DNA from: Escherichia coli | GTDB taxonomy: Bacteria > Pseudomonadota > Gammaproteobacteria > Enterobacterales > Enterobacteriaceae | DNA length: 64,000 bases | Reading direction: 5' to 3' (one strand) | Assembly (NCBI RefSeq): GCF_003019035.1 | Contig: NZ_CP027447.1 | In this document: in pieces, positions 10,498-52,240 of the stretch | Position numbering within the stretch: position 1 is the first letter of the stretch | Layout of the letters: every line of letters begins with the position of its first letter | Notes under the pieces: generated by a model | Seen by the model: only the letters and a program-made list of their open reading frames with translations | Database searches by the model: none | What the model was told of the DNA's origin: nothing | Position numbers and translations under genes: made by a program

Positions 10498-12795
10498 TTA
10501 CAGCAACTCAAACTCGCCTTTCTTAACGCGTGCGGAATCAGTGCCGATAAAGACATTGAACTTGCCAGACTCGGCGTCATATTTCATCTGTTGATTCCAG
10601 AACTTCAGCGCCTCGATATCAATCGGGAAGCTGACGGTCTGGGTTTCGCCCGGTTTCAGGGTGATTTTCTCAAAGCCTTTCAGCTGTTTTACCGGGCGAC
10701 TCATGGAAGCCGTCACATCCTGCAGGTACATCTGAACTACCGTCGCCCCTTCGCGCTTACCGGTGTTCGTCACCTGCACGCTGGCGGTCACTTTGCCGTC
10801 ACGCTTCATGGTCGGCGCAGAAAGTTTCACATCAGAGACGGTGAAAGTGGTATAGCTCAGACCATAGCCGAACGGATAAAGCGCCCCGTTAGCTTCATCA
10901 AAATAACGCGAAGTGTATTTGTTCGGCTTGTCGGCATTATACGGGCGACCGGTATTCAGATGACTGTAGTACACCGGGATCTGCCCGACAGAACGCGGGA
11001 AGGACATCGGCAGCTTGCCGGACGGGTTGTAATCGCCAAACAATACATCGGCAATTGCATTACCGCCTTCAGTCCCCGCAAACCAGGTTTCCAGAATCGC
11101 ATCCGCCTGCTGATCTTCTTTCACCAGCGCCAGCGGACGCCCGTTCATCAGCACCAGCGCCAGCGGTTTACCGGTGGCTTTCAGCGCCGCAATCAAGTCA
11201 CGTTGGCTTTGCGGAATAGTGATATCGGTACGGCTGGAGGCCTCGTGCGCCATCCCCTGAGCTTCACCGACCACAGCCACCACCACATCAGATTGCTTCG
11301 CGGTTTGCACCGCTTCATCAATCATCTCTTGCGGCGAGCGCGGATCAACTTTGACCGCCTCTTCATACTGATTCAGGAAATCGATAATGCCTTTGTCACT
11401 GGTAACGTTCGCCCCTTTGGCATACAGCACTTTACCGTTTTCGCCGACGGCGTTTTTAATCCCGGTCAGTACGGTCACAGATTGATCGGCAACACCGGCT
11501 GCTGACCAGCTGCCCATCACGTCACGTTTGCTGTCCGCCAGTGGCCCTACCACCGCAATGGTTGCCGTTTTTTTCAGCGGCAGCGTTTCAAGACGGTTTT
11601 TCAGCAACACCAGGCTTTCGCGCGCCACTTCACGCGCTTCTTTGCGGTGCAGGCGGCTTTCGGCATTGGTATCCACCGGGTCAGACTCTTTCGGACCGAG
11701 ATGGCTGTACGGGTCGTTAAACAACCCCATATCATATTTAACGTTCAGTACATGACGGGCAGCGTCATCCAGCTCTTCCATCGTCACTTTGCCGGATTTG
11801 ATCAACCCAGGCAGATACTTCGAGTAATACTCGTCGCTCATACTCATGTTGATGCCGGATTTCAGCGCCACGCGCACCGCATCTTCCGGGTCTGCCGCCG
11901 TGCCATGTTTAATCAGCTCTTTGATTGCGCCGTGATCGGAAACGGTGATGCCTTTAAAGCCCCACTGGTCGCGCAGAACATCTTTCAGCAGCCAGGAGTC
12001 GGAGGTGGCTGGCGTGCCGTTCAGCGAGTTCAGCGCCACCATCACCGCGCCGCTGCCTGCGTCCAGCCCCGCTTTGTACGGCGGCATATAATCATTAAAC
12101 AGGCGCTGCGGACTCATATCGACGGTGTTGTACTCTTTACCGCCTTCTACCGCGCCGTATGCGGCAAAGTGTTTGACGCTGGTCATCACCGAGTAGCGAT
12201 CTGCCGGGCTTTTACCCTGCATCGCTTCCACCATGGTTTTGCCCATTATTGAGGTGAGATACGTATCTTCGCCAAAACCTTCGGAAGCACGTCCCCAGCG
12301 CGGATCGCGCGAGACATCGACCATCGGTGCCCAGGTCATGTTCAGGCCATCATCTGCCGCTTCATAAGCAGAGACACGCCCGACTGTTTTCACTGCATCG
12401 AGGTTAAAAGACGAGGCCAGACCGAGGCTAATCGGGAACACCGTGCGCTGACCGTGCAGCACGTCGTAAGCAAAGAAAAGAGGAATTTTCAGGCGGCTTA
12501 ATTCCATCACCTGATCCTGCATGGCGCGGATATCCTGACGGGTTACGGTGTTGAAAATCGCCCCAACCTGACCGTCTTTGATCATCTCGCGGATCGCCTC
12601 TTTCGGGTTATCCGGGCCGACGCTGATTAAGCGCAGCTGACCAATTTTCTCATCAACTGTCATTTTCTTAAGCAGTTCGGTGACGAACGCATCCCGCGCT
12701 TCGGGCGTTAATGGATGGTTGCCGAATAAATCATCCGCCAGTGCTGGCTGCAGGGCCAGACTCACCGCGATTCCTACTGAACATAGCCATTTCAT
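10498..12795 (-). CDS. bglX: Periplasmic beta-glucosidase BglX (GH3), 765 aa
   Basis: ORF 10498..12867 trimmed to MKWLCSVGIAVSLALQPALA signal-peptide start; GH3 domains. Confidence 0.9.
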   Translation of the reverse strand: MKWLCSVGIAVSLALQPALADDLFGNHPLTPEARDAFVTELLKKMTVDEKIGQLRLISVGPDNPKEAIREMIKDGQVGAIFNTVTRQDIRAMQDQVMELSRLKIPLFFAYDVLHGQRTVFPISLGLASSFNLDAVKTVGRVSAYEAADDGLNMTWAPMVDVSRDPRWGRASEGFGEDTYLTSIMGKTMVEAMQGKSPADRYSVMTSVKHFAAYGAVEGGKEYNTVDMSPQRLFNDYMPPYKAGLDAGSGAVMVALNSLNGTPATSDSWLLKDVLRDQWGFKGITVSDHGAIKELIKHGTAADPEDAVRVALKSGINMSMSDEYYSKYLPGLIKSGKVTMEELDDAARHVLNVKYDMGLFNDPYSHLGPKESDPVDTNAESRLHRKEAREVARESLVLLKNRLETLPLKKTATIAVVGPLADSKRDVMGSWSAAGVADQSVTVLTGIKNAVGENGKVLYAKGANVTSDKGIIDFLNQYEEAVKVDPRSPQEMIDEAVQTAKQSDVVVAVVGEAQGMAHEASSRTDITIPQSQRDLIAALKATGKPLALVLMNGRPLALVKEDQQADAILETWFAGTEGGNAIADVLFGDYNPSGKLPMSFPRSVGQIPVYYSHLNTGRPYNADKPNKYTSRYFDEANGALYPFGYGLSYTTFTVSDVKLSAPTMKRDGKVTASVQVTNTGKREGATVVQMYLQDVTASMSRPVKQLKGFEKITLKPGETQTVSFPIDIEALKFWNQQMKYDAESGKFNVFIGTDSARVKKGEFELL

Positions 12796-12990
12796 ATGGA
12801 TTTTTCTTCCTCTGTTGCCCGACGTGGCAGCGAAAATGGTGCAAAAACCGTAGTTTGCCATAAGCATGATGGAGAGAGAAAAAGAATGCTCAGTTTATTG
12901 TCTGAATTTTCAAAATATTCACTCGCTGAATTGTCATACAAGGCGCTATTCTAGTTTGTGATATTTTTTCGCCACCACAAGGAGTGGAAA

Positions 12991-14706
12991 ATGTCTTCCA
13001 TGACAACAACTGATAATAAAGCCTTTTTGAATGAACTTGCCCGTCTGGTCGGTCATTCACACCTGCTCACCGATCCCGCAAAAACGGCCCGCTATCGCAA
13101 GGGCTTCCGTTCTGGTCAGGGCGACGCGCTGGCTGTCGTTTTCCCTGGCTCACTACTGGAATTGTGGCGGGTGCTGAAAGCCTGCGTCACCGCCGACAAA
13201 ATTATTCTGATGCAGGCCGCTAATACAGGTCTGACCGAAGGATCGACGCCAAACGGTAACGACTATGATCGCGATATCGTGATCATCAGCACCCTGCGTC
13301 TCGACAAGCTGCACGTACTCGGTAAGGGCGAACAGGTGCTGGCCTATCCGGGCACCACGCTCTATTCACTGGAAAAAGCCCTCAAACCGCTGGGACGCGA
13401 ACCGCACTCGGTGATTGGATCATCGTGTATAGGCGCATCGGTCATCGGCGGTATTTGTAACAACTCCGGCGGCTCGCTGGTGCAGCGTGGCCCGGCGTAT
13501 ACCGAAATGTCGTTATTCGCGCGTATAAATGAAGATGGCAAACTGACGCTGGTGAACCATCTCGGGATTGATCTGGGCGAAACGCCGGAGCAGATCCTTA
13601 GCAAGCTGGATGACGATCGCATCAAAGATGACGATGTGCGTCACGATGGTCGTCACGCCCACGATTATGACTATGTCCACCGCGTTCGTGATATTGAAGC
13701 CGACACGCCCGCACGTTATAACGCCGATCCGGATCGGTTATTTGAATCTTCTGGTTGCGCCGGGAAGCTGGCCGTCTTTGCGGTACGTCTTGATACCTTC
13801 GAAGCGGAAAAAAATCAGCAGGTGTTTTATATCGGCACCAACCAGCCGGAAGTGCTGACCGAAATCCGCCGTCATATTCTGGCTAATTTCGAAAATTTGC
13901 CGGTTGCCGGGGAATATATGCACCGGGATATCTACGATATTGCGGAAAAATACGGCAAAGACACCTTCCTGATGATTGATAAGTTAGGCACCGACAAGAT
14001 GCCGTTCTTCTTTAATCTCAAGGGACGCACCGATGCGATGCTGGAGAAAGTGAAATTCTTCCGTCCGCATTTTACCGACCGTGCAATGCAAAAATTCGGT
14101 CACCTGTTCCCCAGCCATTTACCGCCACGCATGAAAAACTGGCGCGATAAATACGAGCATCATCTGCTGTTAAAAATGGCGGGCGATGGCGTCGGTGAAG
14201 CCAAATCGTGGCTGGTGGATTATTTCAAACAGGCCGAGGGCGATTTCTTTGTCTGTACGCCGGAGGAAGGCAGCAAAGCGTTTTTACACCGTTTCGCCGC
14301 TGCGGGCGCAGCAATTCGTTATCAGGCGGTGCATTCCGATGAAGTCGAAGACATTCTGGCGCTGGATATCGCTCTGCGGCGTAACGACACCGAATGGTAT
14401 GAGCATTTACCGCCGGAGATCGACAGCCAGCTGGTGCACAAGCTCTATTACGGCCATTTTATGTGCTATGTCTTCCATCAGGATTACATCGTGAAAAAAG
14501 GCGTGGATGTGCACGCGCTGAAAGAACAGATGCTGGAACTGCTGCAGCAGCGTGGCGCGCAATACCCTGCCGAACATAACGTCGGTCATTTGTATAAAGC
14601 ACCGGAGACGTTGCAGAAGTTTTATCGCGAGAACGATCCGACCAACAGTATGAATCCGGGGATCGGTAAAACCAGTAAGCGGAAAAACTGGCAGGAAGTG
14701 GAGTAA
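12991..14706 (+). CDS. dld: FAD-dependent D-lactate dehydrogenase Dld, 571 aa
   Basis: N-terminus MSSMTTTDNKAFLNELARLVG recognised; AAGGAG Shine-Dalgarno upstream of the ATG at 12991. Confidence 0.92.
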   Translation: MSSMTTTDNKAFLNELARLVGHSHLLTDPAKTARYRKGFRSGQGDALAVVFPGSLLELWRVLKACVTADKIILMQAANTGLTEGSTPNGNDYDRDIVIISTLRLDKLHVLGKGEQVLAYPGTTLYSLEKALKPLGREPHSVIGSSCIGASVIGGICNNSGGSLVQRGPAYTEMSLFARINEDGKLTLVNHLGIDLGETPEQILSKLDDDRIKDDDVRHDGRHAHDYDYVHRVRDIEADTPARYNADPDRLFESSGCAGKLAVFAVRLDTFEAEKNQQVFYIGTNQPEVLTEIRRHILANFENLPVAGEYMHRDIYDIAEKYGKDTFLMIDKLGTDKMPFFFNLKGRTDAMLEKVKFFRPHFTDRAMQKFGHLFPSHLPPRMKNWRDKYEHHLLLKMAGDGVGEAKSWLVDYFKQAEGDFFVCTPEEGSKAFLHRFAAAGAAIRYQAVHSDEVEDILALDIALRRNDTEWYEHLPPEIDSQLVHKLYYGHFMCYVFHQDYIVKKGVDVHALKEQMLELLQQRGAQYPAEHNVGHLYKAPETLQKFYRENDPTNSMNPGIGKTSKRKNWQEVE

Positions 14707-14711
14707 TAATT

Positions 14712-14737
14712 ACGGATGGCAGAGTATCGCCATCCGT
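14712..14737. terminator. Hairpin between convergent dld and pbpG (9-bp stem ACGGATGGC/GCCATCCGT), likely bidirectional terminator
   Basis: Perfect inverted repeat seen in sequence, flanked by T/A-rich runs. Confidence 0.5.
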
Positions 14738-14744
14738 CATTCAT

Positions 14745-15677
14745 TTAATCGTTCTGTGCCGTCTGCCCCGCCGCCGCCATTTGGGCGGCTTTTTGTTTTT
14801 TATAGCTCAACGCTGCTGCCGGAACAGGCATCACTTTACCGGTTTCAATCCAGGTACGCAGGCGGCTGGCATCGGCAAAATGGGTATATTTGCCAAACGC
14901 GTCCATTACTACCAGCGCCACCGGTTTATTATTGATAACCGTACGCATCACCAGACAATGGCCCGCCGCATTGGTAAAGCCGGTTTTGGTTAACTGAATA
15001 TTCCAGTTATCGCGATACACCAGATGGTTAGTATTGCGGAACGGCAGCGTATACGTCGGGTTAGAGAAGGTTGCCATATCTTCCCGGGTGGTACTTAACT
15101 GCCCGATCAACGGATATTGTTTGCTGGCAATGAGCAGTTTGGTTAAGTCACGGGCAGTTGAAACGTTATGCACCGACAATCCGGTAGGTTCAACAAAGCG
15201 CGTGTTGTTCATTCCGAGCGATTTCGCTTTCGCATTCATTGCCTTAATAAAGGCTTTGTAACCACCGGGATAATGGTGCGCAAGGCTTGCCGCCGCGCGG
15301 TTTTCTGAAGACATCAGCGCCAGCAACAGCATATCTTTACGGCTGATTTCGCTGTTCAGTCGTACGCGCGAATAGACCCCTTTCATCTCCGGCGTCTGGC
15401 TGATATCCACTTTTAGTTTTTCATCCAGCGGCAGTCGTGCATCCAGCACAACCATCGCGGTCATTAATTTGCTGATAGACGCAATCGGACGCACCAGATC
15501 CGGGTGGTTCGAATAGATCACTTTGTTAGTATTCAGATCAACAATCATCGCGCTACCGGAAGCAATTTCCGGTTGTGACGCGGTGGTAGCGGCTGCCGTT
15601 TTCGCAACGGCCTGCGGTGCAAAAGGCACAGCCAGCATCAGGGCCAGGCTAAATAAAGAAACTCGAAATTTCGGCAT
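14745..15677 (-). CDS. pbpG: D-alanyl-D-alanine endopeptidase PBP7 (PbpG), 310 aa
   Basis: Signal peptide, SxxK motif (SISKLMT), class C PBP; ORF trimmed to MPKFRVSL start. Confidence 0.9.
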
Positions 15678-15850
15678 GATGAGCATTCAGATAGTGGTTC
15701 ACGCGCACGGGTTGCGCACCGCCGGAGTAAGGATTTACTGAGGCTAGCGACGCCATCATAACGAGCAAAAAGTGCGATCGTCAAAGAAGAATCGTGAGGA
15801 AATGCTGCATTGCTGACATTTACGCCAGCAATGCAGCGCAAAAGAACTTT

Positions 15851-16438
15851 CTAGAACAAACGATAACCGTAGCCCCATAGTATAACGGTAAGGGCGAGCA
15901 GCACTTCCAGCACCAGCACGCCTATCGCCAGTGTCGAACTGGAGAAGCTAAGTCCTTCCTCTTTGTTGATATTCAGGAAGCTCGGAATACCGAGATACAG
16001 CAGGTAGCCGGTGTAAAACAGCGCCACCGTGCCGACCAGCGCACACAACCAGACCAGCGGGTAAAGCGCCACCAGACCGCTTAAAAACAGCGGAGTTGCA
16101 ACGTAGCCCGCGAAGACCATGCAGTGCGCAAGTGACGGACGCTGCGGATAATTGCGCGCCATCCACCAGATGACCCGCCCCATCACCGCGACCCCAGCCA
16201 GCATAACGCCATAAAACAAGACAGCCAGCGCCAGTCCGGTAAACCAGGATAACTTCAGGATAGTGCCATCGCCAAAATTCCAGCCAATCTGTGTAGTGCC
16301 AATGAAGGCGCAAATCACCGGAATCGCCGCCATCAGCAAAACGTGGTGGGTGTAGTGATGAGAAATCGTTTCGTTTTCGCGATTAATCACCTGCATTTCA
16401 CGATCGGGATGGGAAAACAGTCCCCAGACATGGCTCAT
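15851..16438 (-). CDS. yohC: Inner membrane protein YohC (Yip1 family), 195 aa
   Basis: Polytopic membrane ORF; start trimmed to MSHVWGLF; synteny. Note: my manual base count disagrees with the ORF-track frame by 1 nt in this region; track frame used. Confidence 0.8.
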   Translation of the reverse strand: MSHVWGLFSHPDREMQVINRENETISHHYTHHVLLMAAIPVICAFIGTTQIGWNFGDGTILKLSWFTGLALAVLFYGVMLAGVAVMGRVIWWMARNYPQRPSLAHCMVFAGYVATPLFLSGLVALYPLVWLCALVGTVALFYTGYLLYLGIPSFLNINKEEGLSFSSSTLAIGVLVLEVLLALTVILWGYGYRLF

Positions 16439-16607
16439 ACCGCCCCCTTGTTGTGAGTTCATGAACCTGACAGTTCAAGTATAAGTCAGCTTGTGATTAT
16501 TTTTTGTTCGCTCATGTAATTTGCACCGTCTGATGTACGTCCTTTTTCAGCGTGAATGATTCACAGGGTGTATGCTTACAGGCAAGCAAAGGGAGACAGA
16601 CTGTCCT

Positions 16608-17186
16608 ATGGATCTCAATACACTCATCTCACAATATGGTTATGCCGCGCTGGTTATCGGTAGCCTGGCGGAAGGTGAAACCGTGACTTTGCTGGGAGGC
16701 GTTGCGGCACATCAGGGGCTATTAAAGTTCCCGCTGGTGGTACTTTCTGTGGCGCTTGGCGGCATGATTGGCGACCAGGTGCTTTATCTGTGCGGGCGGC
16801 GGTTTGGCGGCAAGCTGTTACGCCGTTTCTCGAAACATCAGGATAAAATTGAGCGGGCGCAGAAACTTATCCAACGCCATCCGTATCTGTTTGTCATTGG
16901 TACGCGTTTTATGTATGGCTTTCGGGTCATTGGCCCGACGCTGATTGGTGCCAGCCAGCTGCCGCCGAAAATCTTTCTGCCGCTGAATATTCTCGGCGCA
17001 TTTGCCTGGTCGCTGATTTTTACCACTATCGGTTACGCTGGTGGGCAGGTGATTGCGCCGTGGTTGCACAATCTCGACCAGCATTTGAAGCACTGGGTCT
17101 GGTTGATTCTGGTCGTGGTTCTGGTGGTAGGCGTGCGCTGGTGGCTGAAACGGCGCGGGAAGAAAAAGCCGGATCATCAGGCGTAA
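16608..17186 (+). CDS. yohD: DedA-family inner membrane protein YohD, 192 aa
   Basis: DedA/SNARE-associated membrane ORF; start trimmed to MDLNTLISQYGY. Confidence 0.85.
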   Translation: MDLNTLISQYGYAALVIGSLAEGETVTLLGGVAAHQGLLKFPLVVLSVALGGMIGDQVLYLCGRRFGGKLLRRFSKHQDKIERAQKLIQRHPYLFVIGTRFMYGFRVIGPTLIGASQLPPKIFLPLNILGAFAWSLIFTTIGYAGGQVIAPWLHNLDQHLKHWVWLILVVVLVVGVRWWLKRRGKKKPDHQA

Positions 17187-17204
17187 AACCATTGCCCTGG
17201 ATAA

Positions 17205-17277
17205 GGTGTTCGCGCCGCATCCGACATCCGGTGCACCATGCCTGATGCGACGCTGGCGTGTCTTATCTGGCCTAACC
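17205..17277. repeat. REP/BIME-like palindromic units between convergent yohD and yohF
   Basis: Sequence ...GCGCCGCATCCGACATCCGGTG... and TGCCTGATGCGACGCTGGCGTGTCTTATCTGGCCTA resemble E. coli REP consensus (GCCGGATGCGGCG / GCCTGATGCGACGCT type). Confidence 0.5.
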
Positions 17278-17305
17278 CATTGAAATAACCACGCACCTCA
17301 CTGCG

Positions 17306-18067
17306 CTATTCTGGGTTGAACTGCGGATTCGCCAACATAAAGCCGCCATCCACTATCAACGACTGCCCGGTGGTGTAATTTGCGCCCTCCGAACAAAGCC
17401 ATACCACCAGGCTGGCAATCTCATGCGTTGTGCCAAAACGTCGCAAGGGAATCGAAGGCTCCGCGTCAGGCTTCACGTCGCCGCCATCCATGCCGTTCAT
17501 TGGCGTGGCGATCGCCCCAGGTGCGACTGCGTTCACCAAAATTTTATGCCTGACCAGCTCCAGCGCCATTGCTTTGGTTAACCCGCCGAGCGCATGTTTA
17601 GCGGCTGTGTAGGCGCTGGCATCCGGCAGCGGCGTATGTTCATGTACCGATGTAATGTTGATGATGCGACCGCCCTGCCCTTGTTTCACCATCTGACGAG
17701 CCGCAATTTGCGAGCATAAAAATGCGCCATCGACATCAACGGTAAAAATCTTGCGCCACTCATCGAAAGCCATATCAAGAAACGGCGCTTTGGTCATTGC
17801 GCCCGCATTATTCACCAGCACATCAATACGCCCCAGCCGTTGAATAAGTTTCTCCAGCGCCAGTGCCCCTTCTGGTAGATTGCCGAGATCCAGTTGCACG
17901 ATCTCCGCACGTACGCCGTAGCTAACTACCTCACGCGCGGTATCTTTTGCCCCTTCTTCATCTGAGTGCCAGGTAATGCCAATATCAAACCCCTGCTGCG
18001 CCAGTAATAACGCGCACTCTTTGCCGATCCCCGAATCGGAGGCGGTAATTATCGCGACCTGTGCCAT
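17306..18067 (-). CDS. yohF: Short-chain dehydrogenase/reductase YohF, 253 aa
   Basis: TASDSGIG NAD(P)-binding motif, SDR catalytic region. Confidence 0.85.
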   Translation of the reverse strand: MAQVAIITASDSGIGKECALLLAQQGFDIGITWHSDEEGAKDTAREVVSYGVRAEIVQLDLGNLPEGALALEKLIQRLGRIDVLVNNAGAMTKAPFLDMAFDEWRKIFTVDVDGAFLCSQIAARQMVKQGQGGRIINITSVHEHTPLPDASAYTAAKHALGGLTKAMALELVRHKILVNAVAPGAIATPMNGMDGGDVKPDAEPSIPLRRFGTTHEIASLVVWLCSEGANYTTGQSLIVDGGFMLANPQFNPE

Positions 18068-18119
18068 CGAATTCTCCACTTAACGCTCAACAAACGTTAA
18101 GTATAGAAGGCGCATATCA

Positions 18120-19556
18120 TCAGCGTTTGTAACCCCCGCCCAGCGCACCGGTGAGTTGAATGGAAGCATCCAGCCACTGTCCCTGCAAGAGCAGACCATT
18201 GGCCCGCTCACGCAGCGCGGGGATTCTGGCTTCGCTGACGCGGGAACCAGCAATGATGCCCGCGTTAAAGCGCGCCTGCGCAAGACCTACCACACGCAAG
18301 GCATCGTGCTCAATTTGCGCCTGATGCTGGTTTTTCTCCGCCAGTGTCTGAACCTGGCTGGCCGCCCGCGCCACGTCATTTACCGCTTCAACCACCGCTT
18401 TGTTGTAGCTGGCGATAGACAAGTTGCTTTCGGCTTTTGCAATATCGAGGTTGGCGTTAAGACGACCACTATCGAAAATGGGTAGCGTCAGGCCTGCCGT
18501 AACGCCCATTTGCTGCGCGGAATGACGGAACAGATCGCTTAAGTGCAACGCATCCTGTTGCAGGAAGGCCATCAGGTTGATGTCAGGATAAAATGCCGCT
18601 TTTGCCGCATCAATAGTGCTTAACGATGACTCAACGTACCAGTGCGCCGCCTGCAAATCTGCCCGCCGGGCCAGTAAGGAGTACCCCAGTTCATCAGGAA
18701 GCTGGCTTGCCACTTTCGGCAACGCGACCGGATTAAGCTTCAATGCCTTTGTCTGGTGATTTGTAAGTGCGCTTAACCGTGCCTCAATAATTTTCATTTT
18801 CCCCGCGACATCGTTGAGCTGCTGCCGGGTTTTGCTGGCATTAATATCGGTTTCCACACCTTCAACTGCAGAAGTAATCCCGTTCTGATATAGCTGGCGA
18901 TCGGTGGCGATAATGGTGTTCTGCTCTTTTTCGATTTGCTGTAAGACCGTGTTTAACGCCGCCTGGGTTTGCCACTCCCAGTACAGGCGGGCTACGCTGC
19001 CAGCCAGCAATTGGCGGGTTTGCTCGCGTTCCGCCGCCCGTGCTTTAACCGTACCGAGGCGAGCAGTAACCTCCGCCCGATTCTTTCCCCAGATATCGAG
19101 ATGCCAGCCCGCCGTTAAGCCAAAAGTACCGTTGGTGTACCACGGACCGGTCGTACCTGCGGCAGGATCGTTCAGAGCAAACGGCCCCATTAACCCTTCT
19201 GCAGACATTTTTTGCCGCTCCATATCCGCAGAAAAGTCGATCTGCGGACCATCCTGAGTGGCAACTGCCTTCGCCTGGGCTTCAGCCAGCTGAATGCGCT
19301 GTTCAGCCACCTGCATATCCGGTGCGTTCTGTAGTGCGTTATTAATTAATGAGGTGAGTTGATTATCGTGATACTCCAGCCACCATTGGCTGTCTGGCCA
19401 ACCATTTTTCAGCGCCGTGGGTAATGCGGTGTCAACTTGTGTCGCGGGTGTTTGCTGGCTTAACGCCTGGCGGGTTTCATGCATAGGCGCACACCCGGCC
19501 AGCATCAGTAACAGCGGAAAACAGGCGATGGCTGGATAAAAAGAATCACGATTCAT
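18120..19556 (-). CDS. mdtQ: Outer membrane efflux factor (OMF/TolC-like lipoprotein) MdtQ, apparently intact, 478 aa
   Basis: Uninterrupted ORF; start at MNRDSFYPAIACFPLLLMLAGC (lipoprotein signal, lipobox LAGC); OMF family. Confidence 0.8.
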   Translation of the reverse strand: MNRDSFYPAIACFPLLLMLAGCAPMHETRQALSQQTPATQVDTALPTALKNGWPDSQWWLEYHDNQLTSLINNALQNAPDMQVAEQRIQLAEAQAKAVATQDGPQIDFSADMERQKMSAEGLMGPFALNDPAAGTTGPWYTNGTFGLTAGWHLDIWGKNRAEVTARLGTVKARAAEREQTRQLLAGSVARLYWEWQTQAALNTVLQQIEKEQNTIIATDRQLYQNGITSAVEGVETDINASKTRQQLNDVAGKMKIIEARLSALTNHQTKALKLNPVALPKVASQLPDELGYSLLARRADLQAAHWYVESSLSTIDAAKAAFYPDINLMAFLQQDALHLSDLFRHSAQQMGVTAGLTLPIFDSGRLNANLDIAKAESNLSIASYNKAVVEAVNDVARAASQVQTLAEKNQHQAQIEHDALRVVGLAQARFNAGIIAGSRVSEARIPALRERANGLLLQGQWLDASIQLTGALGGGYKR

Positions 19557-19779
19557 GGGGGAATAATCAGGTAAGAAAAGGTGCGCGGAGATTACCGTGT
19601 GTTGCGATATATTTTTTAGTTTCGCGTGGCAATACATCAGTGGCAATAAAACGACATATCCAGAAAAATATACACTAAGCGAATGATATCTTCCGATTTA
19701 TCTTAATCGTTTATGAATAGCGGCAAAGGGCTTCGTTTTTTCCTATACTTATTCAGCACTCACAAATAAAGGAACGCCA

Positions 19780-19863
19780 ATGAAAATTATACTCTGGGCT
19801 GTATTGATTATTTTCCTGATTGGGCTACTGGTGGTGACTGGCGTATTTAAGATGATATTTTAA
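19780..19863 (+). CDS. yohP: Small membrane protein YohP, 27 aa (MKIILWAVLIIFLIGLLVVTGVFKMIF)
   Basis: Read directly from sequence; below the ORF-track cutoff; Shine-Dalgarno-like AAAGGAA upstream; single TM helix. Confidence 0.65.
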   Translation: MKIILWAVLIIFLIGLLVVTGVFKMIF

Positions 19864-19967
19864 AAATCAGATATGGCATATAAGTTGTCAGGTCAGTAAC
19901 TCGATATTTTGTGTACTTGATTTACAAACAGCTCCGGTGTTGGTGGCGTCAAAATCGCTGAAGCGTT

Positions 19968-20140
19968 CCCCGAAGGCCGGGGCAGCCCACATGGATGTGG
20001 GCTGAGGGCGCGTCTTACAAGGACGTTACCTCGCGCCCGACCCGGTAGCCGAAGGGGATAAGCTGAAGGTACCGCGCAGCGGCGATTTTGTTCGCCAGAG
20101 CCCGGGGGTGCAGGGGGAGGAGGCGATTGTCCTCCCCCTG
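19968..20140. other. GC-rich, hairpin-dense intergenic element between yohP and dusC (at least four strong inverted repeats)
   Basis: Hairpins read directly: CCCCG-5nt-CGGGG (19968-19982); CAGCCCACAT-GG-ATGTGGGCTG (19983-20004); GGGCGCG-19nt-CGCGCCC (20006-20038); CAGGGGGAGGA-8nt-TCCTCCCCCTG (20111-20140). Confidence 0.4.
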
Positions 20141-20230
20141 CGCGCTCCTTGCGCCAGTGGCAATATGTGGCTTAGCTCATGAAAGGAGCGCAACAAGATG
20201 ATGAAGCTAAATAAGCGATTCATTGTCTCA

Positions 20231-20265
20231 GATAAGCTGCGATTCCACTATTATCGCAGCTTATC
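20231..20265. other. 13-bp perfect inverted repeat (GATAAGCTGCGAT-9nt-ATCGCAGCTTATC) spanning the dusC stop codon
   Basis: Seen in sequence; right arm encodes the last codons of dusC, left arm lies just 3' of the stop; no U-run on either strand so not a classical intrinsic terminator. Confidence 0.4.
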
Positions 20266-21201
20266 GATATCAATTGCCTGAATAGCCCTTGCAATATCAG
20301 GGGAATTATTCAACACCCGAACATGCTGAAATAATTCTGTTGCTTCATCGTATTCTTTACGCAAATAACTCAACCACTGTTTAATCCGCGCTACGTGATA
20401 TAACCCGGTATCGCCCTGCTTTTCCAGACGGGTATATTTTTGCAGCAAAGCAACCACCTCCGGCCACGGCATTCGCGGTTCGTTATATTTCACCACACGG
20501 CTCAGGTTGGGAATATTGAGCGCCCCGCGACCAATCATCACCGCGTCACAGCCGCTGATCGCCATACACTGTTGCGCGCTCTGCCAGTCCCAGATTTCAC
20601 CGTTGGCAATCACCGGAATATTCAGCCGTTGGCGAATCTCACCAATCGCCTGCCAATCAATATGCTCCGCGCGGTAACCCTGCTCTTTTGTCCGCCCATG
20701 CACCACCAGCTCCGTAGCGCCAGCCTGTTGAACCGCATCGGCGATTTCAAATTTCTTCTCACCGCTGTCCCAGCCCAGACGCACTTTCACACTGACGGGC
20801 AAATGCGCCGGTACAGCTTCGCGCATCGCTTTTGCACCCTGATAGATGAGTTCAGGATCTTTGAGTAACGTCGCCCCACCGCCGCTACCGTTAACCGTTT
20901 TCGACGGGCAGCCGCAATTGAGATCCACGCCCCAGGAACCTAACTCGACTGCACGGGCGGCGTTCTCTGCCAGCCATTGTGGGAACTGGCCTAACAACTG
21001 CACGCGCACCAGCGTACCGGATGGTGTCCGGCTGGCGTTTTGTAGCTCAGGGCAAATGCGATGAAAGACTTTTACCGGCAGCAGTTGATCCACCACGCGG
21101 ACAAACTCGGTGATGCACAGATCGTAGTCGTTAACTTCGGTCAGTAATTCCCGCACCAGAGAGTCAAGCACACCCTCCATCGGAGCCAGTAACACACGCA
21201 T
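20251..21201 (-). CDS. dusC: tRNA-dihydrouridine synthase C (DusC), 315 aa
   Basis: ORF trimmed to [11 protein letters not shown] start; Dus family TIM barrel. Confidence 0.9.
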
Positions 21202-21403
21202 ATCATCACCCGCCAAAAAATGAGGCGCTATGTTAGCGCCTATGGTCAGCGGATTAAAGGTCTGCAAAGAGGGATTGCTGCAAACTGCAATCCCTCTCTA
21301 TGCTTGATGTATGCCTGAGTTCGCTGCGCATTGTGTAATACCGGGGAGCGAAAAAATAAGCGCTGATTTCTTAATGTGATCGGTAGCACGTTTTACGAAT
21401 TAA

Positions 21404-22530
<1,127 letters not shown>

Positions 22531-22584
22531 AATTTGCGATGCGTCGCGCATTTTTGATGTAAGTTTCACGCGTTGCATAATTAA

Positions 22585-22600
22585 TGAGATTCAGATCACA
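22585..22600. promoter_or_regulatory. CRP-like site TGAGATTCAGATCACA in the cdd promoter
   Basis: 15/16 match to TGTGA-N6-TCACA, about 60 bp upstream of cdd ATG; cdd is a known CRP/CytR-regulated gene. Confidence 0.4.
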
Positions 22601-22659
22601 TATAAAGCCATAACGGGTTCGTAAACTGTTATCCCATTACATGATTATGAGGCAACGCC

Positions 22660-24655
<1,996 letters not shown>

Positions 24656-24706
24656 TATTTTCCCTTTTCTGTTAATTATTGAGAATAATTATTACTTCAC
24701 TTAATA

Positions 24707-24737
24707 AGCTGCGGATATAACATTCTGAACCGCAGCT
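24707..24737 (+). terminator. Stem-loop downstream of yeiS (AGCTGCGG-15nt-CCGCAGCT), putative terminator/attenuator before preT
   Basis: 8-bp perfect inverted repeat followed by ATTTGTG. Confidence 0.35.
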
Positions 24738-24848
24738 ATTTGTGAATCCTTTCACAGTTTAAATTTCCCCACGCGCATAGCCTTAATATCAGCACGCAAT
24801 ATTTATTTAGCGTTCGCCTTAATTACTCATAGCATTAAGGAAGATCAC

Positions 24849-26087
24849 ATGCCGCAACAAAATTATCTGGATGAACTCACTCCGGCTTTTACGCCTTTAC
24901 TGGCGATTAAAGAAGCCTCTCGCTGTTTATTATGTCATGACGCTCCCTGTAGTCAGGCTTGCCCGGCGCAAACTGACCCAGGGAAATTTATCCGCTCAAT
25001 TTATTTTCGTAATTTTAAAGGTGCTGCCGAGACAATTCGCGAAAATAATGCCCTCGGTGCCGTTTGTGCCAGAGTGTGCCCGACGGAGAAATTATGCCAA
25101 AGCGGTTGTACACGTGCCGGTGTTGATACTCCCATTGATATCGGTCGCTTACAGCGTTTTGTTACTGATTTTGAACAACAAACCGGGATGGAAATTTATC
25201 AGCCCGGTACTAAAACGCTCGGCAAAGTCGCGATTATTGGCGCGGGTCCTGCCGGATTGCAGGCCAGTGTGACACTGACAAACCAGGGTTATGACGTCAC
25301 GATCTATGAGAAAGAAGCACAACCCGGTGGCTGGTTGCGTAACGGCATTCCGCAATTCCGGTTACCGCAATCGGTGCTGGATGCAGAAATCGCCCGTATA
25401 GAAAAAATGGGCGTGACCATTAAATGCAATAACGAAATCGGTAACACACTCACCCTGGAGCAGCTGAAAGCGGAAAACCGCGCGGTACTGGTCACCGTGG
25501 GGTTATCGAGCGGTTCGGGGCTACCACTGTTTGAGCATAGCGACGTTGAGATTGCCGTCGACTTCCTGCAACGTGCACGACAGGCGCAAGGCGATATCAG
25601 CATTCCACAAAGCGCATTAATTATCGGCGGCGGTGATGTCGCGATGGACGTAGCCAGCACGCTGAAAGTTCTCGGCTGTCAGGCGGTAACCTGCGTAGCG
25701 CGTGAAGAGTTAGATGAGTTTCCGGCAAGCGAAAAAGAGTTTGCCAGCGCCCGGGAGTTGGGCGTTTCGATCATCGATGGATTTACACCTGTAGCCGTGG
25801 AAGGCAATAAAGTCACCTTTAAGCATGTTCGTTTACCAGGTGAACTAACGATAGCGGCGGACAAAATTATTCTCGCCGTCGGTCAGCATGCCAGACTGGA
25901 TGCCTTTGCGGAGTTAGAGCCGCAGCGTAACACCATCAATACACAAAATTACCAGACCCGCGATCCGCAAGTCTTTGCTGCTGGCGATATTGTTGAGGGT
26001 GACAAAACCGTGGTCTATGCCGTGAAAACCGGGAAAGAAGCCGCCGAGGCGATTCATCACTATTTAGAGGGAGCTTGCTCATGTTAA
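24849..26087 (+). CDS. preT: NAD-dependent dihydropyrimidine dehydrogenase subunit PreT (YeiT), 412 aa
   Basis: Fe-S Cys clusters at N-terminus, FAD/NAD Rossmann GAGPAG motif. Confidence 0.9.
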
Positions 26088-27316
26088 CGAAAGATCTTTC
26101 GATTACTTTTTGCGGCGTGAAGTTTCCCAACCCGTTCTGCCTCTCTTCTTCGCCTGTAGGCAACTGCTATGAGATGTGTGCCAAAGCCTACGACACAGGC
26201 TGGGGCGGCGTGGTGTTTAAAACGATCGGCTTTTTTATCGCCAACGAAGTCTCGCCGCGTTTTGATCATCTGGTGAAAGAAGATACCGGTTTTATCGGCT
26301 TCAAAAATATGGAGCAGATTGCTGAACATCCGTTGGAAGAGAATCTGGCCGCCCTGCGTCGGCTGAAAGAAGATTACCCGGACAAAGTATTGATCGCTTC
26401 AATCATGGGCGAAAATGAGCAGCAATGGGAAGAGCTGGCGCGTCTGGTGCAAGAAGCTGGCGCGGATATGATCGAGTGTAACTTCTCCTGTCCGCAAATG
26501 ACTTCTCATGCGATGGGTAGCGATGTCGGGCAAAGCCCGGAGCTGGTAGAAAAATATTGTCGGGCAGTAAAACGTGGTTCCACGCTGCCAATGCTGGCGA
26601 AGATGACGCCGAATATCGGTGATATGTGCGAAGTGGCGCTGGCGGCGAAGCGCGGCGGCGCAGATGGCATTGCGGCGATTAACACCGTTAAATCCATCAC
26701 CAATATCGATCTTAATCAGAAAATCGGTATGCCGATCGTTAACGGTAAATCGAGTATTTCCGGATATTCCGGTAAAGCGGTAAAACCGATCGCCCTGCGC
26801 TTCATTCAGCAAATGCGTACCCATCCAGAACTGCGCGATTTCCCGATCAGCGGTATCGGCGGCATTGAAACCTGGGAAGATGCGGCGGAGTTTTTATTGC
26901 TCGGTGCAGCGACGTTGCAGGTGACCACCGGCATTATGCAGTACGGGTATCGGATAGTGGAAGATATGGCAAGCGGGTTGTCGCATTATCTCGCCGATCA
27001 AGGGTTTGATTCGTTGCAGGAGATGGTAGGTCTGGCGAATCACAATATTGTCCCGGCGGAAGATTTAGACCGCAGTTATATTGTCTATCCCCATATCAAT
27101 CTTGATAAATGTGTTGGCTGTGGACGCTGTTATATTTCCTGTTACGACGGCGGTCACCAGGCGATGGAATGGAGCGAGAAAACCCGCACACCGCATTGTA
27201 ATACCGAGAAATGCGTGGGTTGTCTGCTTTGTGGTCACGTCTGCCCGGTGGGTTGTATTGATCTCGGAGAAGTGAAGTTTAAGAAAGGCGAGAAAGAACA
27301 CCCGGTAACGTTGTAG
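26081..27316 (+). CDS. preA: NAD-dependent dihydropyrimidine dehydrogenase subunit PreA (YeiA), 411 aa
   Basis: DHOD-like TIM barrel plus C-terminal 2x[4Fe-4S] ferredoxin motifs (CVGCGRC, CVGCLLC); overlaps preT. Confidence 0.9.
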
Positions 27317-34519: not shown

Positions 34520-35389
<870 letters not shown>

Positions 35390-35788
35390 TCACCAGCAAA
35401 GGGTATTTTCCAGCGCCGTACTAAAATCACGGTCATCTGCGTGCGGGGCTGGAGACTTCTGGTTTAAATCTGTCAGTTGCTGGCGCACCTGAAGTCGCCC
35501 TGCCCCTTCGCCGCTGGAAGAATTTTCGTTGAAATTACGCATTTCAGCTTCGAACAATATGGCATCGAGATTTTGCAATTTATTCAGCGCGCGCAGAAGA
35601 GAAATGAGGGTATCAAGATTTAAACTTCCTCCCTTTTCAATCCGCTTGACCGTTGCAATGCCCACCAATGCACGATCGGCTAACTGCTGTTGGGTCAATG
35701 ATAATGAGATCCGCGTTTCTTTAATGCGTGCACATAGAGATAAAATAATTTCGTTGTTATTCATCGTATTATATTTCATCTTACGCAT
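35390..35788 (-). CDS. XRE-family helix-turn-helix transcriptional regulator (accessory island gene); start codon uncertain among three in-frame ATGs (35788, 35779, 35764)
   Basis: HTH_XRE signature LTQQQLADRALVGIATVKRIEKG; stop abuts yeiG stop with no intergenic gap; overlaps the 3' end of the upstream dehydratase gene. Confidence 0.7.
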   Translation of the reverse strand: MRKMKYNTMNNNEIILSLCARIKETRISLSLTQQQLADRALVGIATVKRIEKGGSLNLDTLISLLRALNKLQNLDAILFEAEMRNFNENSSSGEGAGRLQVRQQLTDLNQKSPAPHADDRDFSTALENTLCW

Positions 35789-37133
35789 CCTTTTTTCTTG
35801 GCTGCAATTTGCTCAGACAGCCATGATAAGTTTCACGGTATTTAGCGCTCATATCCTTTCCGGTTTCATACATCGCGGAAATTATCTCATCCAGCGTAAT
35901 GCACGGCTCGCTTATGCGACTCAACGCCATCGTCGTTGCGTTGATAGCTTTCACAGCTGAAATAGCATTTCGTTCAATACAAGGAATTTGTACCTGCCCG
36001 CCAACTGGATCACAGGTCAAACCTAAATGGTGTTCCATTGCAATTTCTGCCGCGCTGAGTACCTGAGTCACTGACCCGCCCATAAGTTCTGCTAATCCTG
36101 CTGCCGCCATTGAACTGGCAACGCCTATTTCTCCCTGACATCCAACTTCAGACCCCAGAATAGAGGCATTTTTTTTGAACAGAATGGCGATGGCACCGGC
36201 GGTCAGAAAAAAGCGAGTAACGGAGTAAGTATCAAGTTCATGAATGAATTTATCATACCAACACAGTACGGCCGGGATAATACCGCTCGCGCCGTTGGTG
36301 GGTGCTGTCACGACGCGTCCACCAGCAGCATTTTCTTCGCTCACCGCAATGGCAAAAGTATTAACCCAATTGATCGCAGTCAGGAAGTCATTAGTAAACC
36401 CCTTTGCCTGCAACGATTTATATAAAGCACAGGCACGACGGTTAACCTGATACGGACCTGGAAGTAATCCTTCTGTATGCATCCCGCGATAGACCGCATC
36501 CTTCATTACTTCCCATTTTTTATTGAAATCGTCATGCAAAAAACCAGATGTCTGGCAGTGCAGTTCGTTTTTCATCATTAATGCCGCGACAGATAATCCG
36601 TTTTGCTGACAAAGTTTTAATAATTCGTTTGCGTTCTGGAATTCAAAAGGATGTGGAGTGACTGATGGAGGAATAATCGCCTCTCCTGCTTTTAGCACTT
36701 GACCGTCGCCGATAGAAAACCAGGTTTCTTCATAAAGTGTAAACCAGTCATCTCTGGCACGAAATGTCATCGCATAAGGGTGCCCCGGATGCGCCTGTGG
36801 ATTAGAAAGAATGGATACACTGACGTTGACACCAGGCATAACTTCCAGCGTCGCCTCAGTTTCTGCACGCCTGATGGCGGACATTTCCATGCGGATATCA
36901 ACACTGTCAGGTAAGTGGCCTTGCAAACCGAGATAAATCGCCACATCAACATTATGGCACTTGCGGCTTAATGACAGTGCACCATAAAGTTCGACATCAA
37001 TTTTCCGCAACAAAGGTAACATTTCTCGCTGTTTCAATTGTGAGACAAAATTATAAGCCGCACGCATTGGCCCGACAGTGCGGGAACTGGATGGACCTAT
37101 AACGATTTTGAATATATCTACGCAGCTTTCCAT
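35781..37133 (-). CDS. Fe-S L-serine dehydratase paralogue (SdaA/SdaB/TdcG family), about 450 aa (accessory island gene)
   Basis: Aligns by eye along its length with E. coli SdaA ([62 protein letters not shown]); start set to ATG at 37133 ([17 protein letters not shown]) rather than the upstream TTG. Confidence 0.85.
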
Positions 37134-37188
37134 TTTTGTAAATAATTCCTTCAACGTTGAAAACTCGTTATTCGTTATATCCTAGCAA

Positions 37189-37260
37189 AGATATCAAAAA
37201 TGGTACTTTTAGTATCTTATTATTTCAAGGTATCAAAAAAAGTACTTTTTTATCTTTTAT
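37189..37260. promoter_or_regulatory. Two direct-repeat copies of an approximately 27-bp palindrome-containing motif (TATCAAAAA..GTACTTTT..TATCTT) in the divergent island promoter; putative operator
   Basis: Copy 1 around 37191-37219, copy 2 around 37230-37258; copy 2 contains the perfect 16-bp palindrome AAAAAAGTACTTTTTT. Confidence 0.4.
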
Positions 37261-37343
37261 TTAACATTCACAACTGTGATTGTCAGATACATCAGCCTCT
37301 ACGAAATCTTATTATAATCATCGCAGATAAAAAGGAGCGGTAA

Positions 37344-38231
37344 ATGACGATTATTTATTTCTTGTCGCCAACAGGCATCGACATCACCCAAAAATGTCTG
37401 AAAGATTATCTGCAACATTTAAAGATTTCCCCCTCGGTGTTTTCGTTAACAACGAATTACAGTAGGCAAATAAATAGAGAGTATCTAAAGCTAGTATTAC
37501 CAAATGATGTTACCAACCCTGCTTTTTATGCTGGTTTACGTCACCGTGCTGATCATCATCATTTTGATTTTTTCCGCAAACCTACGGACTTACCGGCTGA
37601 GGGAATTATTGCCTTTGATATGGATTCCACCTTTGTTGAAGAGGAAGGTGTTGATGAAATAGCCCGTAGACTCGGCATCTCTGAAAAAATCACCGCACTG
37701 ACCCGTGAAGCGATGGAAGGGAAAATCGATTTTGATACCAGTTTTACCCGGCGAATTGCCATGCTTAAAGGAACGCATAAAGATATATTGCATCAAGTTT
37801 GTGAACAGATGACTCTTTCACCAGGTCTTGAAACTATTCTTCCCATACTAAAAGAAAAAGGATTCAAGACGGCAATTATATCTGGAGGTTTGGATATTTT
37901 TACTGAGCGATTGAAGGAAAAATATCAACTTGATTTTGCATTTTCTAACTCTGTGCGCATTAAGGAAGATCTGTTAACTGATACAATTACCTTACCTATT
38001 ATGAATGCAGAAAAGAAAAAGCAAACCCTGATAAATTTAGCGACAGAGTTAGCTATCTGCCGTGAAAACATCATTGCCTGCGGAGATGGCGCTAATGATA
38101 TTCCTATGCTTCTGCATGCCGGGAATGGCGTGGCATGGAAAGCAAAACCTAAAACCCGGGAAAAAGTTGCTAACCAGATTAATTTTAATGGTTTCGAGTC
38201 GCTTCTCTTTTTTATAGAAGAAAAATTATAG
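37344..38231 (+). CDS. HAD-superfamily phosphoserine-phosphatase-like protein (SerB paralogue), 295 aa (accessory island gene)
   Basis: HAD motifs DMDSTF (I), SGG (II), GDGANDIPML (III); collinear with SerB catalytic domain; AAGGAG Shine-Dalgarno 8 nt upstream of ATG. Confidence 0.8.
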   Translation: MTIIYFLSPTGIDITQKCLKDYLQHLKISPSVFSLTTNYSRQINREYLKLVLPNDVTNPAFYAGLRHRADHHHFDFFRKPTDLPAEGIIAFDMDSTFVEEEGVDEIARRLGISEKITALTREAMEGKIDFDTSFTRRIAMLKGTHKDILHQVCEQMTLSPGLETILPILKEKGFKTAIISGGLDIFTERLKEKYQLDFAFSNSVRIKEDLLTDTITLPIMNAEKKKQTLINLATELAICRENIIACGDGANDIPMLLHAGNGVAWKAKPKTREKVANQINFNGFESLLFFIEEKL

Positions 38232-38263
38232 CGCCATAAAGTTTACAGAAAAGGAAACTCACG

Positions 38264-39586
38264 ATGAGCTTGAAAAAATTTATTTTCAGCCAGGCCGACC
38301 AACCGGTGGTCAAACGGCAAGAAGAAGTTGATCATACTTATAAAAAATTTCGCATTGAAATCATCACCTCTGTATTTATCTCTTATGCCGTATTTTATTT
38401 AACCCGCAAGAATTTCTCTGCGGCCATGCCGGCGATGTTAACGGATACGTCATTAACTGCACAAGATTTCGCTATCATGTCGTCGGTCTTTTACATTCTT
38501 TATGGCTCCATGAAGTTTGTAGGTGGCATGTTAGTTGATAAAATTAATCCACGCGCGATGACCGGCCCCGTACTTATTGGCGTCGGTATTGTTAATATTC
38601 TTTTCGGTTTTTCAGACAGCGTTGCTGCGTTCTATATCCTGTACAGCCTTAATGCTATTCTTCAGGGTACCAGTTTTCCGCCGATGGCAAAAATTATGGC
38701 CTCGTGGTTCTCTAAAAATGAACGCGGGCGCTGGTGGGCAGTTGTTGAAGCGGCGCATAATATTGGCGGTAGTCTTGCGCCTCTCCTGACAAGCTTTGCT
38801 ATTGCTTTTAGTGGCAGCTGGAAGATGGGCTTTTATGTTCCGGGTGTAATCTCACTGATTATGGGGATTGTTGCCTTGTTTACGATAAAAGATCGTCCCG
38901 GCACGCTCGGTTTGCCTAACGTCGGTAAGTGGCGCAACGACCCGACAGAACTTGCACAAGTTAAAGCAAGTCCGGTTGATCTCAGTTTTTGGCAAATATT
39001 CGTTAAATATATTCTTACCAACCCATTAGTTTGGCTCATTATCCTCGGGGATATGTCGGTCTATATTGCACGCACCATCCTCAATGACTGGCCACAAATT
39101 TATTATTCTCAGGTTCATAACTGGAGCCTGATTAAAGCGAACTCCATTATATCCTGGTTTGAAGCAGGTGGACTTGCTGGGGGATTACTGGCGGGATACT
39201 TGTCCGATTTCATGTTTAAAAGTAACCGCTGGATGACCGGATTAATCTTTGCCATCGCTTTATGTATTTGCATCGTTCTCGTACCGCTGGTGCAGGACGT
39301 CTCCTATACATTAACGGCTATTCTGTTTACAATCATGGGGTTTGCATTGTATGGACCGCATATGTTATTCGCTGTCGGGTGTCTTGATGTTACGCATAAA
39401 GATGCGGCAGGTTCCATTACTGGATTCAGGGGCTTGTTTAGTTATTTAGGCGCGGCAATGGCAGGGCTTCCAGTTATTATGGTGAAAAACAGTTGGGAAT
39501 GGTCAGGAGTGTATATTTACGCCGTCATTACCATTTTGCTGACAACATTTTCACTGGCCTTACTGGCAAAATTTCATCGGTTATAA
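38264..39586 (+). CDS. MFS transporter of the organophosphate:phosphate antiporter (OPA) family, GlpT/UhpT/PgtP-like, 440 aa (accessory island gene)
   Basis: 12-TM MFS; OPA-family signatures (YLTRKNFSAAMP, WFSKNERGRWW, LYGPHMLFAVG, AAGSITGFRGLFSYLGA) resembling GlpT; Shine-Dalgarno AAGGA upstream. Confidence 0.8.
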   Translation: MSLKKFIFSQADQPVVKRQEEVDHTYKKFRIEIITSVFISYAVFYLTRKNFSAAMPAMLTDTSLTAQDFAIMSSVFYILYGSMKFVGGMLVDKINPRAMTGPVLIGVGIVNILFGFSDSVAAFYILYSLNAILQGTSFPPMAKIMASWFSKNERGRWWAVVEAAHNIGGSLAPLLTSFAIAFSGSWKMGFYVPGVISLIMGIVALFTIKDRPGTLGLPNVGKWRNDPTELAQVKASPVDLSFWQIFVKYILTNPLVWLIILGDMSVYIARTILNDWPQIYYSQVHNWSLIKANSIISWFEAGGLAGGLLAGYLSDFMFKSNRWMTGLIFAIALCICIVLVPLVQDVSYTLTAILFTIMGFALYGPHMLFAVGCLDVTHKDAAGSITGFRGLFSYLGAAMAGLPVIMVKNSWEWSGVYIYAVITILLTTFSLALLAKFHRL

Positions 39587-39610
39587 ATCCAGAAACGAAT
39601 TTCTGGCATT

Positions 39611-39637
39611 ATGCCCGGCGGGATCCGCGCCGGGCAT
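39611..39637. terminator. Hairpin ATGCCCGGCG-7nt-CGCCGGGCAT between island transporter gene and cirA (convergent), likely bidirectional terminator
   Basis: 10-bp GC-rich perfect inverted repeat; a second weaker hairpin CCAGAAA-CGAA-TTTCTGG lies at 39589-39606. Confidence 0.5.
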
Positions 39638-47654: not shown

Positions 47655-47662
47655 CAATCTTG

Positions 47663-47696
47663 CCGGATTCGACGCTTGACCGCGTCTTATCCGGCT
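47663..47696. repeat. REP-like palindrome between convergent yeiI and nupX
   Basis: GCCGGATTCGACGCTTGACCGCGTCTTATCCGGC, REP-like. Confidence 0.45.
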
Positions 47697-47709
47697 CATA
47701 ACTCGCGCA

Positions 47710-48960: not shown

Positions 48961-49059
48961 AGTTATTATCTCTTCATGTCATTTTGGGCGACGGCTTTCT
49001 GCCCATCAGAAATAGCCAGGCTTGCATCTTGCGATACCGGCCCGGCTTGATATCACCAC

Positions 49060-50852: not shown

Positions 50853-50888
50853 TGCCGGATGCAACGCTTAATAAGGCGTACATCCGGC
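50853..50888. repeat. REP-like palindrome between convergent yeiL and psuT
   Basis: GCCGGATGCAACGCTTAATAAGGCGTACATCCGGC, REP-like. Confidence 0.45.
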
Positions 50889-50896
50889 AATGAAAC

Positions 50897-52147: not shown

Positions 52148-52240
52148 AATGATTTTCCCTTCATGCCAGTAAACCCGGCGTCAGCGCCAGGTTTTGGTAT
52201 GTATGATCAGTACGGGCGACGGCTTTCTGCCCGCCAGAAA

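Follow-up and report, generated by a model that had tools for sequence, protein, structure and literature searches.

The gene mdtQ (yohG) lies on the minus strand of the window analyzed here, a 64-kb stretch of Escherichia coli DNA, between the divergently oriented gene for the small membrane protein YohP and the oxidoreductase gene yohF (Table 1). Its reading frame runs from an ATG at position 19556 to a stop codon at 18120 to 18122. It comprises 1437 nt without a single internal stop, as stated by the original prediction, which had described an intact frame of 478 codons. The RefSeq annotation of strain SCU-301 likewise contains an intact 1437-nt mdtQ coding sequence (WP_096986566.1). According to the list of open reading frames and the raw sequence, the open frame itself extends from 18120 to 19646 and would yield a protein of 508 aa if read from an upstream TTG. 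This longer reading, starting at TTG 19646, was rejected, as the orthologues and RefSeq use the ATG at 19556 and the extension is not conserved at the protein level. Indeed, the orthologues all begin at this ATG, with M-N/K-R followed by the signal peptide. Two antisense open reading frames on the plus strand inside mdtQ (18156 to 18485 and 18904 to 19257) were regarded as frames that arise by chance in conserved coding sequence.

Table 1. Positions of mdtQ, of features within it, and of adjacent elements in the window
Feature	Position	Strand	Basis or remark
yohF (SDR oxidoreductase)	17306..18067	-	Annotation; 52 nt downstream of mdtQ, same strand
mdtQ (yohG) CDS, intact, 478 codons plus stop	18120..19556	-	List of open reading frames, raw sequence, NF008524
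First OEP repeat, residues 69-266	18759..19352	-	Pfam PF02321; second repeat in the C-terminal half
A5 run (T5 on the plus strand), gene nt 144-148, codons 49-50	19405..19409	-	Alignment; A4 in K-12, the pseudogene lesion
Lipoprotein signal peptide (residues 1-21) and lipobox Cys22 (codon 19491-19493)	19491..19556	-	MNRDSFYPAIACFPLLLMLAGC, then AP
Conserved upstream block GATGTATTGCCACGCGAAACTAAAAAA	19612..19638	-	Cross-genus comparison; ends 55 nt before the mdtQ ATG
yohP (small membrane protein gene), divergent from mdtQ	19780..19863	+	SCU-301 and K-12 annotation; translated

A GC-rich repeat of ~270 bp (19940 to 20213) is located between yohP and dusC and, judged from its position, was taken to be the TRIP1c element (PMC10888264). 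The repeat is inverted relative to K-12 MG1655 at ~89% identity, and both of its flanks are collinear with K-12 at ~97%. Among other Escherichia loci, the orientation of the window was found at L009, L011, and L012, and that of K-12 at L008 and L027. The copy at L011 (Escherichia sp. E1V33) is 98.5% identical to that in the window, while mdtQ of the same genome is only 86.6% identical. The dusC gene (20251 to 21201, minus strand) has 951 nt in the window and in strain IMT16316 versus 948 nt in K-12 and is thus one codon longer. No RNA family was detected at the mdtQ locus in an Rfam scan. The sole Rfam match in the whole window was the Peptidase-S11 RNA motif (RF03039; 72.8 bits; 15682 to 15762, minus strand), which adjoins the upstream side of pbpG, i.e., the pbpG leader. 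Elsewhere in the window, the NupC family genes nupX and psuT (47660 to 48978 and 50881 to 52165, respectively) cross-match at ~79%, as an old pair of paralogues.

The MdtQ protein

In the NCBIfam profile search, the translated protein matched the MdtQ equivalog NF008524 over its full length (residues 1 to 478 of 478) with 1020.1 bits, well above the cut-off of 650. It also belongs to the NodT subfamily TIGR01845 (274.1 bits; cut-off, 210.05) and contains two stretches of the Pfam domain PF02321 (OEP; 104.9 bits; cut-off, 22), corresponding to two tandem repeats. The full-length match to NF008524 and the two OEP repeats place this open reading frame far beyond what is expected by chance. The protein is the same as the MdtQ/YohG known from E. 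coli (UniProt Q8X659 from O157:H7; NF008524), and its gene has the same neighbors; compared with it, the window copy is a rare allele without a visible functional distinction. The closest paralogous family is MdtP (YjcP) of the mdtNOP operon. MdtP and MdtQ are both described as acylated NodT-type channels; however, mdtP is encoded together with an adaptor and an inner membrane partner, whereas mdtQ stands alone, and MdtQ falls outside the MdtP equivalog (352.8 bits on NF007390, below the cut-off of 597).

The N terminus (MNRDSFYPAIACFPLLLMLAGC followed by AP) consists of a signal peptide with a hydrophobic core and the lipobox L-A-G-C (LLMLAGC), with Cys22 as the cysteine of the lipobox. The lipoprotein signal named in the original prediction is thus present. 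Both Cys22 and Ala23 were invariant across 28 aligned MdtQ orthologues, ranging from Escherichia to one Burkholderiales genome, and the pattern L-[AS]-[GA]-C-A-P was present at nearly all mdtQ loci. Under the established +2 rule for lipoprotein sorting, MdtQ would be expected to reside in the outer membrane, as its residue +2 is Ala and not Asp. Acylation of MdtQ, as of MdtP and CusC, is described in a preprint (bioRxiv 10.1101/2025.03.19.644130).

The solved structure nearest to MdtQ by sequence is VceC of Vibrio cholerae (1yc9; 2.4e-39, residues 51 to 477), followed by OprM, SilC, and CusC. An AlphaFold model of the MdtQ monomer, built on the 28-sequence alignment, had a mean pLDDT of 70. 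The long helices were predicted with confidence, and the beta-barrel segments (residues 103 to 153 and 323 to 362) had a pLDDT of <50. As the model represents a monomer of a trimeric barrel, poor confidence in these segments is not surprising. All significant PDB fold matches to the model (44/44) were outer membrane factors, with TM scores of 0.55 to 0.62, indicating a TolC-like fold. VceC was among the relatives matching by fold as well as by sequence (~21% identity in the structural alignment); it is the channel of the VceAB MFS pump and is encoded with that pump. TolC, CusC, and OprM belong to the same fold class, and OEP repeats are common to all of them. However, TolC is not a lipoprotein and shares just 10 to 13% identity with MdtQ in the structural alignment, and CusC and OprM, unlike MdtQ, are encoded in RND operons.

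The K-12 lesion and the distribution of intact mdtQ

The assumption of the original prediction that mdtQ is annotated as a pseudogene in K-12 MG1655 agrees with the records: b2139 is a pseudogene of 1436 nt in the NC_000913.3 annotation, and RefSeq flags mdtQ of an MG1655 derivative as "frameshifted." The two genes occupy the same locus with the same flanks and are 97.2% identical at the nucleotide level; the window copy is uninterrupted, whereas that of K-12 is frameshifted. The comparison with K-12 that the prediction had suggested for placing the lesion was carried out as a global alignment of the 1437-nt and 1436-nt genes, which revealed 40 substitutions and a single indel. This indel lies in a run of adenines (CTG AAA AAT GGT in the window), of which K-12 has four instead of five. 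Thus, neither identity of the window to K-12 nor an intact K-12 gene, which together would have spoken against the prediction, was found.

As a consequence of the missing nucleotide, the K-12 frame is shifted at codon 50, and frame 0 terminates after 69 residues. Beyond the lesion, the remaining protein is unbroken in the other frame, and restoring the A in K-12 mdtQ gives a full-length protein with 6 amino acid differences from that of the window (dN/dS, 0.061). The absence of further damage to the K-12 gene fits a recent loss. The deletion of one A from the run of five probably arose by replication slippage.

To count the alleles, exact matches to an 88-mer around the intact site and to the corresponding K-12 87-mer containing A4 were collected among 5,426 complete E. 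coli genomes. The intact word matched in 4,473/5,426 and the K-12 word in 355/5,426 of these genomes, and most genomes with neither exact word differ by a substitution. The first 60 listed of the 355 genomes with A4 were all laboratory strains, mostly named K-12 derivatives; the named strains include MG1655, C600, DH5alpha, DH1, J53, and NCM3722. Likewise, among 39 full-length mdtQ matches in an evenly spaced sample, a match shorter by 1 nt was observed only in the two K-12 derivatives. Intact mdtQ coding sequences of 1437 nt are also annotated in BL21(DE3), Nissle 1917, and IMT16316. Since the lesion sits in a short homopolymer, where indel errors arise easily, one might suspect that either the A5 or the A4 version stems from faulty sequencing or assembly. 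However, the exact A4 version recurs in 355 independently sequenced complete genomes and the A5 version in 4,473, and SCU-301 has the same run as the window, so that an artefact is effectively refuted.

Overall, an intact mdtQ is the norm for the species E. coli, and the pseudogene is a peculiarity of K-12. That mdtQ is intact outside K-12 is already known from print, as a 2025 review described the gene as core-conserved despite its K-12 annotation (PMC11762307). As intactness is the default state of the species, it tells only that the window does not stem from a K-12 derivative.

A non-K-12 origin, as inferred in the original prediction, was evident from the window as a whole, which shares 99.995% identity with the E. 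coli SCU-301 chromosome (NZ_CP051751.1) but only ~97.3% with that of MG1655 (96.6 to 98.5% per block). Strain SCU-301 originates from a healthy student, from whom a rectal swab had been taken. The window diverges from K-12 to a similar extent throughout, and the two are collinear except for an insertion of 4.2 kb between yeiG and cirA (35382 to 39627) that K-12 does not have. In the SCU-301 annotation, this insertion encodes an HTH protein, an L-serine ammonia-lyase, a second SerB-type phosphoserine phosphatase, and an MFS transporter. The prediction had regarded the intact mdtQ as consistent with this island; the island is indeed present here and missing from K-12, but it has no specific link with mdtQ.

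Within the species, the mdtQ allele of the window is rare, as is the lineage itself. Among the 5,426 complete genomes, identity of at least 99% over 1.8 kb was found only in SCU-301, and the next genome reached 98.1%. Over a longer stretch of 16.8 kb (10500 to 27300), again only SCU-301 showed at least 99% identity in the same genome set, followed by LR-28 (98.8%) and then by a set of genomes at 98.5%, among them IMT16316, ECONIH1, and MS6198. We take these three strains to be ST648 members of phylogroup F. Import of the rare allele from a cryptic Escherichia clade was considered and rejected, as the window mdtQ is closer to that of K-12 (97.2%) than to those of Escherichia sp. MOD1-EC7003 (95.0%), E. 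whittamii (87.0%), and E. albertii (85.0%), and as the window shows no marked local change in its divergence from K-12. The intact gene confirms that the window derives from a natural, non-K-12 lineage of E. coli near SCU-301. We are highly confident that the stretch from 18120 to 19556 represents mdtQ (yohG), a core gene of the chromosome, in its intact wild-type form and that it encodes an outer membrane factor lipoprotein of the NodT family.

Conservation, selection, and the upstream region

A scan of a species-representative genome set recovered 79 distinct mdtQ loci. Complete open reading frames of 472 to 483 aa with a lipobox were present at ~70 of the 76 loci evaluated, and the few interrupted loci each came from an individual assembly. 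The position of mdtQ in the Enterobacteriaceae is fixed (dusC-yohP-mdtQ-yohF-yohD), and the gene is intact in ~70 species. It was found between dusC and yohD in Escherichia, Citrobacter, Salmonella arizonae and diarizonae, Klebsiella, Raoultella, Enterobacter, Kluyvera, and Lelliottia, and the window gene occupies the same orthologous position (dusC/yohP to yohF/yohD) as its counterparts in K-12 and SCU-301.

Comparisons of the window mdtQ with those of K-12, the cryptic Escherichia clades, E. albertii, and Salmonella arizonae gave dN/dS values of 0.03 to 0.06, at divergences reaching a dS of ~1 to 2. Such values correspond to strong purifying selection, and mdtQ is therefore very likely to be functional. 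Together with the family-wide conservation, they lend support to the original suggestion of a potentially functional outer membrane factor. Some isolates of Salmonella Typhi and Paratyphi A carry independent truncations of mdtQ (PMC9241588), and the gene is thus dispensable in some niches.

Upstream of mdtQ, the conserved block listed in Table 1 is invariant from Escherichia to Salmonella and Citrobacter, whereas the flanking DNA diverges. Its core, TTGCCACGCGnnACTAAAAAA, lies 51 to 58 nt upstream of the mdtQ start codon in 43/76 orthologous loci, and the block follows the pattern GATGTATTGCCACGCG[A/T][A/T]ACTAAAAAA on the minus strand. Across these 76 loci, it was present in Escherichia, Citrobacter, Salmonella, Enterobacter, Lelliottia, and others and was not found in Klebsiella, Raoultella, and Kluyvera. 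In E. coli, a second copy of TATTGCCAC is located 14 nt upstream of the block. From its conservation, the block is a candidate promoter or regulator site. When it was compared by eye with sigma-E, sigma-54, and sigma-70 promoter patterns, its spacing fitted none of them, and assignment to these promoter types was rejected.

A promoter scan yielded no consensus sigma-70 promoter before mdtQ, and no Shine-Dalgarno sequence was evident before its ATG. These observations would suit a frame that is intact but belongs to a silent relic, either not expressed or not giving rise to a working channel. The absence of a linked pump and the loss of mdtQ without evident cost in K-12 and in some Typhi and Paratyphi A isolates point in the same direction, and the 2025 review considers the function of MdtQ not elucidated and its promoter unconfirmed (PMC11762307). 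However, a dN/dS of 0.03 to 0.06 maintained up to a dS of ~1 to 2, full-length open reading frames, an invariant lipobox, a fixed position in ~70 species, and a conserved upstream block are unlike the upkeep of a silent gene. We therefore regard a silent relic as very improbable and favor a working channel.

Possible function and partners of MdtQ

No adaptor or pump gene was found beside mdtQ in the window or in any enterobacterial locus examined. Its neighbors are yohP, dusC, yohF, and yohD, which do not make up a tripartite operon, and with no adaptor or pump gene adjoining it, MdtQ is an orphan channel. This is consistent with the 2025 review, in which MdtQ is one of four outer membrane channels of E. 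coli and is encoded independently (PMC11762307). In Klebsiella, Kluyvera, and Enterobacter, an extra 5 to 6 kb separates dusC from mdtQ and was considered as the site of a partner pump. This was rejected by gene content: the region holds genes for an OprB porin, a BglG-type antiterminator, a PTS EIIBCA, a GH1 phospho-beta-glucosidase, and a methyltransferase, i.e., a beta-glucoside PTS operon forms part of these 5 to 6 kb upstream of mdtQ.

Family membership suggests the following route and mode of action. The MdtQ precursor would leave the cytoplasm via Sec and become acylated on Cys22, after which the Lol system would deliver it to the outer membrane, where the mature protein would trimerize into a TolC-like exit duct. 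This duct would then dock with a periplasmic adaptor and an inner membrane transporter encoded elsewhere in the genome. The likeliest partners may be pumps of the EmrAB/EmrKY type or of the MdtNO type, an assignment to which we give an about even chance of being correct. It is based on the relatives of MdtQ: VceC serves an MFS pump, MdtP is encoded together with MdtNO, and the one distant relative recovered (32% identity, from a Burkholderiales genome) is part of a MarR-OMF-HlyD/EmrA-like-MFS operon.

Alternatively, MdtQ could be a working channel that does not serve drug efflux but exports an endogenous metabolite or peptide, possibly in connection with the oxidoreductase YohF. The two genes share a strand and are separated by 52 nt in which no terminator-like site was predicted, and they are possibly cotranscribed. 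The resistance phenotypes described in the literature are slight, and the strong conservation of mdtQ without a linked drug pump could likewise be explained by such a role. However, around half of the enterobacterial genera lack yohF between mdtQ and yohD, as do E. albertii and E. whittamii, and the Nissle 1917 annotation shows yohF as a pseudogene with an internal stop beside an intact mdtQ; mdtQ thus does not need yohF. In addition, the closest relatives whose partners are known, namely, VceC, MdtP, and the relative in the Burkholderiales operon, belong to drug-type MFS or adaptor pumps. Export of an endogenous compound is therefore unlikely, and we return to MdtQ as the outer membrane duct of an unlinked pump.

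The role of this duct in resistance would be minor and would overlap with that of TolC. Null mutants of mdtQ were reported to be more susceptible to puromycin, acriflavine, and tetraphenylarsonium (PMC11762307). A phenotype has also been reported for a Keio yohG deletion in a ciprofloxacin tolerance screen. The published null mutant phenotypes presumably come from K-12, in which the gene is already frameshifted, and thus they are not face-value evidence of channel function. If this is the case, the K-12 deletion phenotypes would have to stem either from a low level of frame restoration at the run of adenines or from polarity on yohF.

MdtQ may be an orphan exit duct under strong constraint, with a conserved control element of its own (TTGCCACGCGnnACTAAAAAA), an unlinked partner, and a task in TolC-independent export; as a whole, we consider this rather improbable. 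If true, this task would have escaped laboratory work, since the mdtQ copy of the standard model K-12 is frameshifted. Studies of MdtQ in K-12 start from a broken gene, and its role should be tested with an intact allele or with the missing A restored.
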